DNA of 64,000 nucleotides from a virus, in IMG/VR virus record IMGVR_UViG_3300009545_000018, positions 51,224 through 115,223 of that record. One strand, written 5' to 3'. The notes beneath the pieces were generated by a model. The model was given only the letters and a program-made list of their open reading frames with translations, was not told the DNA's origin and searched no databases. The translations under genes were made by a program, and so were the position numbers. Numbering within the stretch: the stretch's first letter is position 1; every line of letters starts with the position of its first letter. This document shows positions 24,983 through 28,141 of this stretch, in pieces.

Positions 24983-25456
24983 ATGAAGTATTCAAAAGAA
25001 TTACTATCTAAACTAGTTTCTGAATGTACTACTGTTGCAGAGCTAATGAGAAAGTTAGGACTCCAACAATCTGGAGGAACACATTCATTTTTAACTAAAA
25101 GAATAAAATCATTTAGTATTGACACATCTCATTTTGTTGGTTCTGCTTTTAATGCGGGACTAAATCATGTAGGCGGTCCAGAGAAACTATGTTCAACAGA
25201 TGTTTTAGTCCTAGATAGGCTTAACGGTCAAAGAGAGAAATCTTTTAGATTAAAGAGAGCATTATTAGAATCTAACATAAAAGAAGAGTGTGAACAATGT
25301 GGTGTGAGTACTATTTGGAATAATAAACCAATTACACTTCATATTGATCATAGAGATGGTAATGGTCTAAATAATTGTATAGAAAATTTAAGGTTCCTTT
25401 GTCCTAATTGTCATTCTCAAACGGACAATTATGGATCTAAAAATATTGGAAAATAA
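24983..25456 (+). CDS. HNH homing endonuclease
   Basis: C-terminal HIDHRDGNGLNN...NLRFLCPNCH HNH motif; directly upstream of lysS with ATGA overlap. Confidence 0.7.
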   Translation: MKYSKELLSKLVSECTTVAELMRKLGLQQSGGTHSFLTKRIKSFSIDTSHFVGSAFNAGLNHVGGPEKLCSTDVLVLDRLNGQREKSFRLKRALLESNIKEECEQCGVSTIWNNKPITLHIDHRDGNGLNNCIENLRFLCPNCHSQTDNYGSKNIGK

Positions 25457-27075
25457 TGTCAGAAGAATCCCTTATAGAAACCCGTCGCCAGAAGCATATT
25501 AAAGCTAATGGTGGAACTTACCCCATTGCTAATGATAGTAATTCAATTGATGATATCATTGGGCATAATTTAATTATGCGGTTTAAACAACCAGAATCTG
25601 ACATTAAAACAACTATCTGCTTCTCTGATTTAGAAGGAGAAGAACTCGTTAAGGTTCATGGCAGACTAACCAGTATCAGAAATACTGGCGGCATTACTTT
25701 TCTTAAAATTAAAGATAATACTGGTGCAATACAAATAATTGTTTCAAAAAAAGAATTATCTAATTATAAAGATTTAGCTAATTTAGATTTAGGCGACATT
25801 GTTGAAGTCGAAGGTAAAGTGGTTTTTTCTAAGACCAAAGAATTATCGGTTCTTATGTCTAGCTGGATCTTATTGTCTAAAGCTATTAGACCTTTACCAG
25901 AAAAATATCATGGCATTACAGATGTAGAATTAAAATATCGCAAGAGATATCTAGATTTAATTTGTTCGGATGAGTCAAGAGAGATCTTTAAATTAAGGTC
26001 ACTTGTTATTTCTTCCATAAGAAATTTTTTAATTCAGGACGGTTTTATGGAAGTAGAGACTCCAACATTAAATATAGTTAATAGTGGGGCTAATGCCAAA
26101 CCATTCCAGACACACCACAATTCTTTAGATATGGATCTTAATTTGAGAATTGCTCCGGAGCTTAATCTCAAGCGATTAATTGTGGGAGGATTTGATAAAG
26201 TATTTGAAATTGGTAAGAATTTTCGTAATGAAGGGCTGTCTACTAGACATAATCCAGAATTTACTATGCTTGAATTTTATGAGGCTTATAGTAATTTTGG
26301 TAATTTAATAGATAAAACAATGCGGCTTTTCAATTATATTGAGGGTGATTTAGAAACTTACTATCAAAGTAAACCAGAAGAAAAAGTATTATTTGATAAA
26401 TGGAAAACTGCTCGCCCCTTTTCTTTTTCCTTTTGGAAAGAATTACCTATGTGGGATTTAGTACTTCATGCTTGTAATAAAGCAGAAATATTAATTCATC
26501 ACGGAATTCATCCTCTAGTAAAAGACAGCCCAACAGATGGTGCTCCTTTATTAGAAAGAATTAATTTAAATAATGAAAGATTATTAAAAATTGATTGGAA
26601 AGATTTGTTAGACAAATTAAATCTGGAAAAAGATAATGGTCAAATAATAGGATTATTATTTGAATATCTTGCTGAACCATTTCTTACTGAAGATTATAGA
26701 ACTGCTGATGGTACACATTCTTTGCCAGTCATTGTAACGCAATTCCCCACAGAGCTTTGTCCTTTAGCCAGAGCTTATGATAAAGCCCCAACATTATGTG
26801 AGCGTTTTGAGCTTTACATAGATGGCAAAGAAATTGCTAATGCCTTTCAAGAACTTAATGATCCAGTAGAACAAAGAAAAAGGTTTGATGAACAGCTAGT
26901 AAGCAATCAAAGAGATGCTATGGATATCGACAATGATTACATTGAAGCTTTAGAATATGGCATGCCTCCAACTGTTGGTTTGGGTCTAGGAATAGATCGT
27001 TTGGTAATGTTATTAACTAATTCATCATCCATTAAAGATGTAATTTTATTTCCTACAATGAAGCCATTAAAGTAA
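25456..27075 (+). CDS. lysS: lysyl-tRNA synthetase, class II
   Basis: Class II motif 2 [23 protein letters not shown], motif 3 [13 protein letters not shown]-terminal OB anticodon-binding region. Confidence 0.85.
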   Translation: [539 protein letters not shown]

Positions 27076-27082
27076 AATAATT

Positions 27083-28141
27083 ATGACTGAAATTTTATTA
27101 GCAAAACCAAAATTATCTTCTGATTTTATTGATTCTTCCGTTGGCGAGCCTTACATTATTCGCAAGCATCTCTTTGATATGTTTACATGGGACGAGGATG
27201 TTGGAGCTGTTGATCTATCATATCCTTTTCCTCAAGGATATGAGCCGTTAGTTAAGATGTTGGAAGATAAACATCAAGCTCCAGTTATTATAACAAATGG
27301 CGCAAAACAAGCCTTGGGTGGGGCTTTTTACTCTCTACAAAAAATGGGTAAAATTAGAATGGGAATGAGAAAGCCATATTGGGCACTCATTCCTCCACTA
27401 GCAGAAATGCATGGAATTGTTCCGACTTTTCCAAAACAAGATGTGGATTGTCACCCAAATTTAACAATAGCTAAATTTAAGGATGACTTTAATCCAAAAG
27501 ATTTAGATAGTTATTTATGTATAAATCCTAACAATCCTGATGGTTGGGTATCAAATGATATAGAAAATTTGTATTTATTATTTGAGAGTCACAAGATTCC
27601 ATTCATATTTGATGGCGCTTATTATCATGATATGTATATGCAAGGCACATATCCTAAACATAAGCAACTTGGTGACGTTCAAATTTATACTTTTTCTAAG
27701 TCTTTAGGTTTATCTGGACTTAGATTAGGGTACGCTGTTTGTCATAATACAGAGTTTTATAAACACATGTCTGCTTATATGGAAGCTATGACAGTTGGAG
27801 TATCAACTATATCTCAAAGATATCTTTATAATTTACTTCAATCTATGAATCAGGATCCGGAACTAGTTCGTTCTTTTGAAGAAAGATGTTTTCTTTCTTT
27901 GTTAGAAAACAAAAAAGAATGTTTAAATATTAATCCGGAAGTTTTGGAATTGCCAAGTAATTTTACAGATATTCCAGGAATGTTTGGATGGTGTAAAGTA
28001 GGACCTAAAGCTGATTTTAATAAAGCTAAAATTCATTTTGTTGGTGGTAAGTTATTTGGTGCTGAGGATATGATACGAATAAATTTAGCTTTTGAAAATC
28101 ATGTAATCAAAGATATTGTAAATAGATTGAATTCATTATGA
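27083..28141 (+). CDS. PLP-dependent aminotransferase, class I/II fold
   Basis: Lys-containing FSKSLGLSGLRLGY block typical of fold-type I aminotransferases. Confidence 0.55.
   Translation: MTEILLAKPKLSSDFIDSSVGEPYIIRKHLFDMFTWDEDVGAVDLSYPFPQGYEPLVKMLEDKHQAPVIITNGAKQALGGAFYSLQKMGKIRMGMRKPYWALIPPLAEMHGIVPTFPKQDVDCHPNLTIAKFKDDFNPKDLDSYLCINPNNPDGWVSNDIENLYLLFESHKIPFIFDGAYYHDMYMQGTYPKHKQLGDVQIYTFSKSLGLSGLRLGYAVCHNTEFYKHMSAYMEAMTVGVSTISQRYLYNLLQSMNQDPELVRSFEERCFLSLLENKKECLNINPEVLELPSNFTDIPGMFGWCKVGPKADFNKAKIHFVGGKLFGAEDMIRINLAFENHVIKDIVNRLNSL

Follow-up and report, generated by a model that had tools for sequence, protein, structure and literature searches.

The DNA analysed, referred to here as the window, is a 64,000-nt stretch of IMG/VR record IMGVR_UViG_3300009545_000018 (positions 51,224 to 115,223) from an uncultured, tailed phage with a genome of approximately 448 kb and 30% G+C. 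Its lysS gene, encoding a lysyl-tRNA synthetase (LysRS), lies between a gene for an HNH endonuclease and a gene for a pyridoxal phosphate (PLP) aminotransferase-like enzyme, all three being part of a long co-oriented gene block on the plus strand. A conserved 11-mer, TCCCCTCCTTT (24854..24864, +), occurs once in the window and is located 26 nt upstream of a type II tRNA-Leu(UAG) gene with an encoded CCA (24890..24975, +; identified by ARAGORN and scoring 50.2 bits against Rfam RF00005). The ATG of the free-standing HNH gene (24983..25456, +; 157 aa) is found 7 nt past the end of this tRNA gene. It is followed by lysS (25456..27075, +), the product of which is a class IIb LysRS of 539 aa from a phage-specific clade, and by the aminotransferase-like gene (27083..28141, +), encoding a fold-type I PLP enzyme of 352 aa. 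An earlier interpretation made from the letters and open reading frames (ORFs) of this stretch, the sequence-only reading, had given this three-gene layout with exact coordinates and strand, and its placing of a PLP aminotransferase directly after lysS is supported by a PF00155 match of 63.7 bits (cutoff 19.7). It had not noticed the tRNA-Leu(UAG) gene and was mistaken about the junction between the HNH and lysS genes, read as ATGA. The actual junction is TAATG, within ...AAATAATGTCA, such that the stop codon of one gene and the start codon of the next share 1 nt. Judged by coordinates alone, the only 4-nt stop/start overlap is that between the aminotransferase gene and the next ORF (28138-28141).

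The lysS product scored 503.8 bits against the NCBIfam equivalog TIGR00499 lysS_bact (cutoff 427.6) and 516.5 bits against NF001756 (cutoff 468). An OB-fold anticodon-binding domain (PF01336, 4.4e-16; aa 65-139, 25648..25872, +) precedes the class II catalytic core (PF00152, 5.6e-78; aa 157-535, 25924..27060, +), and the best match in the PDB was E. coli LysS (1bbu, 1.1e-113), with LysU also among the best solved relatives. When aligned with E. coli LysS and LysU (1bbu, 1e1o), motif 1 (GFMEVETP, 26041-26064, +), motif 2 (26221-26280, +), motif 3 (26977-27015, +) and the lysine/ATP pocket were all intact. The active site of E. coli LysU comprises G216, E240, R262, E264, H270, N271, F274, E278, Y280, E414, E421, N424, F426, E428 and R480; the equivalents in the phage protein are G211, E235, R257, E259, H265, N266, F269, E273, Y275, E452, E459, N462, F464, E466 and R515, and these are invariant in 34 clade members save F464, which is at least 90% conserved. 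The stretch between motifs 2 and 3 (aa 300-408) is approximately 40 aa longer than in E. coli and is conserved within the clade. The assigned lysS start codon is correct because the N-terminus, MSEE.LIE.RRQKH, is conserved in relatives; an N-terminal extension was considered and rejected, this region being an ordinary N-terminal helix to which PDB 6wbd aligns from residue 3. The sequence-only reading had described a full-length enzyme with all three class II motifs, which the domain matches and alignment confirm, and had named degenerate catalytic residues, indicative of a pseudo-synthetase, as the result that would speak against it; no such degeneracy was found. From its intact motifs this LysRS should be catalytically competent.

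A search of a 5.8-billion-protein database returned relatives of this LysRS at full length, the best 120 matches being 49-67% identical and many of them encoded on contigs of 100-498 kb. One relative (P0029) is annotated as LysU on a 447,247-bp contig named 'uncultured Caudovirales phage' at NCBI. A protein 100% identical to the LysRS is encoded on a 447,763-bp metagenomic contig, and the region is also present on a 152,570-bp Logan contig (SRR6056501). An alignment-based scan of IMG/VR detected clade members on ten viral contigs of 266-481 kb; the same scan with a single LysRS sequence gave no matches, so that an alignment query was needed. A metagenome scan with a three-sequence LysRS alignment was dominated by bacterial LysRS sharing universal peptide patterns, with no close relatives among its results. 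From one-genome-per-species contigs, the best of 591 bacterial and archaeal LysRS matches was 46% identical, and the top cellular matches were taxonomically scattered among Nautiliaceae, Aquificota, Bacillota and Actinomycetota. A tree was built by neighbour-joining from 147 sequences, made up of 34 proteins of the clade, proteins from viral contigs and 80 from bacteria. In this tree 44 phage-type LysRS sequences formed one clade with bootstrap support of 100/100 on a stem of 0.28 substitutions per site, with identities of 50-71% (mean 62%) inside the clade and at most 47% to any sequence outside it. The question of whether the enzyme is host-derived or an ancient phage lineage, which the sequence-only reading had proposed to settle by phylogeny, is thereby answered with a monophyletic, phage-only clade, and the enzyme is, on the evidence of this tree, an old lineage evolving within phages and not a recent host capture. 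Its attribution to a phage also stood. Host contamination or recent transfer of lysS was ruled out, as the clade is monophyletic and the overall and third-position G+C (GC3) of lysS, like those of the HNH and aminotransferase genes, equal the genome values. The analysis defines a large phage-only LysRS lineage, which comprises at least 120 sequence clusters and is found on contigs as long as approximately 500 kb, for which no description as such was found in the literature searched.

When 50,697 phage records were searched with the LysRS by tblastn, the matches were chiefly host-contaminated assemblies and the real phage matches were distant (for example LR756504, 38% identical). In many records with phage labels, among them 'Salmonella phage S.Kent 1-2-1', 'Staphylococcus phage SA 1306 Kay', 'Listeria phage LM 4-11-1' and 'Acinetobacter phage MD-2021a', the lysS, genX and aspS genes are of bacterial type; such records look like host-contaminated assemblies and inflate apparent counts of phage synthetases. 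Synthetases had been called rare in phages, a statement which holds for isolates, where nearly all matches were to host-contaminated records, and does not hold for huge phages, described in 2020 as carrying up to 15 synthetases (PMC7162821).

The window contains 13 tRNA genes called by ARAGORN and 11 Rfam tRNA matches, none of which is a tRNA-Lys. The absence of a lysine tRNA noted in the sequence-only reading is therefore correct for the window and incorrect for the genome, as genes with UUU and CUU anticodons are located 3.1-3.2 kb beyond its end. Both lie in a locus of the same contig extending 10 kb beyond the window (L313; window coordinate = L313 coordinate + 53,490). The tRNA-Lys(UUU) gene (L313 13675-13748, 3.2 kb past the window end) is canonical, with an Rfam score of 70.2 bits, A73 and an encoded CCA, and the tRNA(CUU) gene adjoins it (L313 13578-13661, equivalent to window 67068-67151, 3.1 kb past the window end). 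Since the tRNA-Lys(UUU) gene is on the same contig as lysS, the phage encodes both the enzyme and its substrate. Across 73 ORFs of the window lysine ranks second among the residues (8.8%), its codons being AAA in 895 cases and AAG in 220 (80% AAA), and such a lysine-rich proteome is consistent with a demand-driven role for LysRS. The enzyme, acting with the phage tRNA-Lys(UUU) and possibly with the odd tRNA(CUU), would keep Lys-tRNA charged during infection, and the benefit would be greatest when the tRNA-Lys of the host, or its charging, is limiting or attacked. The LysRS and tRNA-Lys together are candidates for biochemical work and form a candidate orthogonal pair. The tRNA(CUU) combines a lysine anticodon with a long, type II-like variable arm; many of the phage loci retrieved, including that of the cultured phage phiPsa347, likewise contain tRNAs with long variable arms, in those cases with Asn, Gln, Ile, Cys or Glu anticodons.

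A further tRNA-like gene (56990-57079, +) scored 59.5 bits against Rfam and has perfect acceptor, D and T arms, an AGGTC variable loop, an encoded CCA and an anticodon arm with 13 extra nt. ARAGORN interpreted it as having either a 4-base anticodon, 'gttt', or as a tRNA-Ile(AAU) with a 13-nt intron (GTTTTATAAAACG), and RNAfold predicted an 11-bp anticodon stem with an 8-nt loop (UAUAAAAC; z = -4.95). It was considered as the missing tRNA-Lys and ruled out, the real tRNA-Lys genes being downstream; it may be a decoy, a processed tRNA or a pseudogene. A similar oversized anticodon arm is present in IMG/VR locus L302 (97 nt), and a search for relatives of the gene recovered only an unrelated tRNA. 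Two further ARAGORN calls, tRNA-Phe(AAA) at 59097-59174 (+) and tRNA-Ile(UAU) at 63844-63919 (+), fall below the Rfam tRNA gathering score and may be degenerate or unusual.

The protein encoded directly upstream of lysS matched phrog_10822 'HNH endonuclease' (1.2e-48) and has approximately 2,000 homologues of about 160 aa, the closest being 66% identical. Its catalytic and zinc-binding motif (aa 103-147, CEQCG...HIDHRDGNGLNNCIENLRFLCPNCHSQT; 25289..25423, +), to which Pfam HNH aligns at aa 103-146, contains residues C103, C106, D122-H123, N135, C140, C143 and H144 in the arrangement CxxC...DH...N...CxxCH, and these are invariant or nearly so across the family. Precomputed Pfam annotations place some family members above the Pfam gathering score. 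An AlphaFold2 model (mean predicted confidence, pLDDT, 87.5) consisted of an N-terminal helical, helix-turn-helix (HTH)-like domain and a C-terminal zinc-finger beta-beta-alpha-Me domain, with the beta-beta-alpha element at aa 120-144; a sequence search of the PDB gave no matches. The gene is single-copy in the 74 kb of contig examined and is its own ORF between genes, outside any intron or intein. The earlier assignment of the small upstream ORF as an HNH homing-endonuclease-type gene thus agrees with the phrog_10822 match and the intact residues, and the gene is most probably a free-standing selfish element of the homing-endonuclease type.

To which neighbour this element is linked was clear from the distribution of its family. 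A tRNA gene was found within 1.5 kb in 72 of the 80 IMG/VR loci carrying a family member, compared with 21% of control windows, and the nearest tRNA was tRNA-Leu in 35 of these 72, where Leu accounts for 26% of the 304 tRNAs present (binomial p = 3e-5). The three closest homologues with available DNA, represented by four loci, have differing gene surroundings, yet the ATG always follows the CCA of a tRNA-Leu by 1-7 nt. This spacing is shared by the window and loci L229-L233, the latter without lysS nearby. A convergent arrangement of the HNH gene and tRNA-Leu, 3' end to 3' end, is seen instead in L009, in L014 and in Agrobacterium phage Atu_ph07, a cultured phage of 490 kb, and the distance between the end of the HNH gene and tRNA-Leu is 1 nt in Citrobacter phage Michonne and 18 nt in Pseudomonas phage phiPsa347. 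It is therefore tRNA genes, above all those for tRNA-Leu, that the HNH family accompanies, rather than lysS. The tRNA-Leu(UAG) gene of the window is likely to be the anchor or target of the endonuclease, and the association of this phrog_10822-like family with tRNA-Leu across unrelated phages points to a concrete homing site. No description of this specific and widespread linkage was found in the literature searched. The HNH gene is probably co-transcribed with tRNA-Leu(UAG). During mixed infections its product would cleave the DNA of relatives that lack the endonuclease, either within the tRNA-Leu gene or next to it, and repair of such cuts would copy the nuclease gene and its neighbours.

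This places in doubt a model built on the sequence-only reading, in which the HNH endonuclease recognises a conserved 5' part of lysS and was inserted at the upstream edge of that gene for this reason. In its favour, the HNH stop overlaps the lysS start, a homing-endonuclease gene is present within approximately 1.5 kb of lysS in six of 13 lineages, and endonucleases of other classes flank lysS, namely LAGLIDADG genes in P0029 and P0025 and a downstream GIY-YIG fragment in P0003. However, the HNH family abuts tRNA-Leu with no lysS nearby in L229-L233, Michonne, phiPsa347 and Atu_ph07, phages of very different kinds, and in L009 and L014 the HNH gene touches tRNA-Leu, with other ORFs lying between it and lysS. 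As these genomes are rich in homing-endonuclease-like genes, with three in the 64-kb window, an excess near lysS carries little weight. Homing to lysS is thus improbable, and the presence of the HNH gene is not explained by lysS; the HNH gene touches lysS only because, in this clade, lysS ancestrally has a tRNA-Leu as its upstream neighbour.

Evidence for this ancestral arrangement came from the 11-mer TCCCCTCCTTT. Among 322 loci it was found once each in L001, L009, L010, L013, L014, L028 and L320 and nowhere else, within an otherwise diverged spacer; its end is always approximately 25-45 nt from the start of the tRNA-Leu located before lysS or the aminotransferase gene. The 11-mer and tRNA-Leu are together upstream of lysS in the window, L009, L010, L013, L014 and L028, an arrangement that shows what is probably the ancestral layout. 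The anticodon at the orthologous tRNA-Leu locus varies (UAG, CAA, UAA, AAG) among the window, L009, L010, L013, L014, L028, L320 and L322, representing shifts within one isotype, and in the loci that carry it the upstream TCCCCTCCTTT identifies the tRNA-Leu genes as positional orthologues despite their differing anticodons. The 11-mer resembles the 3' end of 16S rRNA (anti-Shine-Dalgarno CCUCCUU), and may be a promoter element, a processing signal or a target of Shine-Dalgarno mimicry.

The interval between tRNA-Leu and the aminotransferase gene is a variable slot. It contains the HNH gene and lysS in the window; lysS alone in P0002 and lysS with a GIY-YIG fragment in P0003, these being the closest LysRS relatives, with slot contents taken from gene tables; a GIY-YIG/NUMOD3 gene 4 nt after tRNA-Leu and no lysS in L322; and nothing in L320. 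The L320 slot is only 34 nt long and has no remnant of lysS, such that window positions 24733-27077 correspond to 324 nt there, and the rest of L320 aligns collinearly to the window with 67-81% identity. Both L320 and L322 have the same flanking genes and tRNA-Leu as the window. Presence/absence polymorphism of the HNH gene, which the sequence-only reading had suggested looking for, was found in these relatives, with no HNH gene in L320, L322, P0002 or P0003, and also between L013 and L014. The latter two loci are collinear with 78% nucleotide identity, and a 489-nt indel between them corresponds exactly to the HNH ORF, directly after the CCA of tRNA-Leu(CAA). The tRNA-Leu of the endonuclease-bearing L014 differs from that of L013 in its acceptor, variable and T arms, giving it a mosaic structure. 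Elsewhere a LAGLIDADG gene is directly upstream of lysS in P0029 and overlaps the 3' end of lysS in P0025. The gene lysS had been seen as the fixed, conserved partner beside which an endonuclease had settled, a role that does not fit its absence from the slot in two of the closest relatives, L320 and L322. As judged from these comparisons, the slot is a recombination and homing hot spot in which lysS is an accessory gene that can be lost. Because the adjacency of lysS and the aminotransferase gene is deep, loss of lysS in L320 and L322 is the more parsimonious interpretation than gain. No description of this hypervariable slot was found in the literature searched. The flank of the tRNA gene can be regarded as a landing pad, with selfish nucleases and accessory genes for translation being gained and lost there.

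Blocks of conserved genes border the slot in all close relatives. Upstream (20995-24773, +) are genes for a 551-aa protein without family, a phosphatase of the protein tyrosine/dual-specificity type (PTP/DSP-like) and a 383-aa membrane protein, and a 126-aa ORF; downstream (28138-33965, +) are genes for a SpoU methylase, a Nudix protein, LemA, an SPFH/Band 7 protein and a TPM-domain protein. Three further nuclease genes of homing or selfish type were observed on the contig. These are a GIY-YIG/SegE-like ORF (6631-7305, -), a homologue of which adjoins tRNA-Leu in L322; a DUF559/MTES_1575 (Vsr-like) endonuclease gene (57431-58399, +) located 60 nt after a tRNA-Pro within the tRNA cluster; and a LAGLIDADG gene just beyond the window end (L313 18314-19219, -).

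A second alternative is that the HNH protein has been domesticated for a tRNA-Leu-tied role, such as processing, regulation or defence against competing phages, and that this explains the conserved adjacency. The persistence of HNH-tRNA-Leu adjacency across very distant phages and in several orientations, the full set of intact catalytic and zinc-binding residues and the complete amelioration of G+C and GC3 in the HNH gene would all fit such a role. Against it are the clean presence or absence of the gene between close relatives, the variation in its position and strand relative to the tRNA gene, the GIY-YIG gene at the same site in L322 and the differing gene contexts of the closest homologues. 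Variable position, presence/absence and site swapping are typical of mobile endonuclease genes, and domestication appears very unlikely.

If the HNH endonuclease is a selfish element tied to tRNA-Leu, lysS may be co-converted as its passenger. A more specific proposal, that the HNH gene and lysS travel together as a 2.1-kb cassette, is speculative, and we consider it doubtful. Under it, a cut at the tRNA-Leu of an L320-like phage would be repaired from an HNH- and lysS-bearing donor, with the tRNA-Leu side and the aminotransferase gene serving as homology arms, and the repair would install the synthetase as a passenger. Were this true, homing would be the vehicle by which a translation gene spreads through a population of approximately 450-kb phages, and the cassette would explain why lysS is patchy in the closest relatives despite the deep, phage-only protein tree.

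The aminotransferase-like protein retains the residues of its family, with NPNNPDG (N150-P152-D153-G154), FDGAYY (D177, Y180) and S205-K206 invariant in 31 homologues; the codon of the PLP lysine is at 27698-27700. An AlphaFold2 model had a pLDDT of 90.2, and Foldseek matched it to class I structures of the aspartate aminotransferase type (1o4s, 1gck and others) with E = 1e-18, a TM score of 0.74 and 15-20% identity. Fold searching returned generic class I aminotransferases only, with no clue to the substrate, and the best NCBIfam equivalog score was at most 52.8 bits against cutoffs of 290-620, so that no substrate class was assigned. In total 389 homologues were found, the best of them on contigs of 340-488 kb, and the family is, as far as these homologues indicate, confined to huge-phage contigs of the kind that carry the LysRS relatives. 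At least 17 of the best 120 homologues share the size of their longest contig with a LysRS relative, which points indirectly to co-residence of the two genes. The aminotransferase gene adjoins lysS in L009, L010, L011/12/45, L013, L014, P0002 and P0003; it is retained without lysS in the slot in L320 and L322, so the pairing is frequent and not obligatory. The sequence data identify the protein as a predicted intact fold-type I PLP enzyme, often linked to lysS. A mainly non-translational LysRS, either a producer, like E. coli LysU, of diadenosine tetraphosphate (Ap4A) or related dinucleoside polyphosphates that acts in conjunction with the downstream Nudix protein, or an enzyme that charges a lysine derivative made by the PLP enzyme onto tRNA(CUU), is highly improbable, since conserved lysS-SpoU methylase-Nudix-LemA synteny in relatives, frequent pairing of lysS with the aminotransferase gene, the clade-specific extra length of approximately 40 aa between motifs 2 and 3 and the long variable arm of tRNA(CUU) are set against canonical lysine-binding residues, the presence of a canonical tRNA-Lys(UUU), the persistence of the Nudix and SpoU genes in L320 with no lysS in the slot, and that of the aminotransferase gene in both L320 and L322.

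The interpretation that accommodates most of these data, to which we assign a probability of approximately 0.72, is that the locus combines a working LysRS of old phage lineage, a selfish HNH element linked to tRNA-Leu, a hot-spot slot between tRNA-Leu and the aminotransferase gene, and an intact, lysS-linked PLP enzyme. Several points weigh against it. The HNH protein itself scores below the Pfam thresholds (HNH, 19.8 bits with a gathering score of 21.4; HNH_3, 19.7 bits with a gathering score of 24.8), and a fold search with its model gave only non-significant HNH and HTH matches (E > 0.1). Adjacency to tRNA genes could reflect the tolerance of tRNA clusters to insertion rather than targeting, and Leu is the commonest tRNA in the HNH loci, which weakens the argument for specificity, though the binomial test allows for that. 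The LysRS tree was a neighbour-joining tree with a bacterial sample picked by peptide pattern. The relatives compared at the window locus are not strict alleles, having 61-69% protein identity for the aminotransferase, the 551-aa protein and the phosphatase; the membrane protein is 37-42% identical among relatives, and the relatives are about as distant from the window as from each other. A copy of lysS might be located elsewhere in the genomes of L320 and L322, for which contigs of 67 kb and 7 kb were covered. Finally, no virion hallmark genes were found in the 64-kb window, and the status of the source as a phage is inferred, safely, from the IMG/VR and NCBI labels of relatives, PHROG matches, genome architecture and recurrent contig sizes of approximately 450 kb.

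The window as a whole has a G+C content of 30%, with nearly all ORFs on the plus strand. A megablast search of the segment against the 50,697 phage records gave no match, indicating no isolate among them that is close in DNA, and a scan of window positions 24300-28600 for promoters and terminators gave hits no more numerous than in shuffled sequence. Besides the nucleases, Nudix and SpoU genes described above, the window encodes DNA methyltransferases and a 5'-3' exonuclease. A glutathionylspermidine synthase-family gene (17388-18530, +; PF03738, 2e-152; phrog_6215, 4e-131) has homologues with 41-51% identity in Ralstonia phage phiRSL1, in Sinorhizobium phage Phosso (469 kb) and in T4-like phages of Aeromonas. 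A Ro60/TROVE protein with a vWA domain (48601-50181, +) matches phrog_850 'RNA-binding protein' (2e-37), and the whole window gave no Rfam match to a Y-RNA family at gathering score.

That huge phages carry synthetases and that phage tRNA clusters harbour nucleases is already established, and current views of either are not overturned by these data. The phage LysRS shares with E. coli LysS and LysU (1bbu/1e1o/1lyl; TIGR00499) a common two-domain architecture, the N-terminal helix, the motifs and the lysine/ATP residues. It differs from them in being at most 47% identical to any sampled cellular sequence, in belonging to a separate clade on huge viral contigs and in having approximately 40 more residues between motifs 2 and 3. 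As with the synthetases described from huge phages, the gene resides in a genome of more than 200 kb rich in tRNA genes, and the presumed role is charging of phage tRNAs (PMC7162821). A 'LysU ... uncultured Caudovirales phage' entry has been cited in the description of Microcystis phage PhiMa05 (PMC8093824). In contrast to those synthetases and the PhiMa05 LysU, the enzyme described here has no detectable host affinity and its clade is deep and self-contained; the LysRS matches from PhiMa05 and LR756504 (38% identical) fall outside it.

The closest parallel to the HNH element is SegB, a homing endonuclease encoded in the tRNA cluster of phage T4 that drives inheritance of the tRNA region (PMC2330249). 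Both are encoded by free-standing genes among phage tRNA genes, and the working model proposed here is that established for SegB, which cuts the tRNA region of related phages and favours inheritance of itself and the neighbouring tRNA genes. The two differ in fold, SegB being a GIY-YIG enzyme and the present protein a predicted HNH enzyme, with no GIY-YIG domain matched in Pfam or PHROG searches. It is not a member of the SegB type, and by analogy may have a SegB-like mode of action. Further differences from SegB are that the association here is specific to tRNA-Leu and that a synthetase gene of 1.6 kb may be part of the passenger DNA. HNH genes have been described as core genes of some viral tRNA clusters, including those of Felix O1-like, mycobacterial and other phages (PMC6409571). 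Michonne gp141 and Atu_ph07 gp460 are members of the same protein family as the window HNH protein, with 38-44% identity, and their genes share its tight adjacency to tRNA-Leu. The HNH genes of tRNA clusters are located in dense tRNA arrays, whereas the tRNA-Leu beside the HNH gene of the window is solitary and the other neighbour of that gene is a synthetase.

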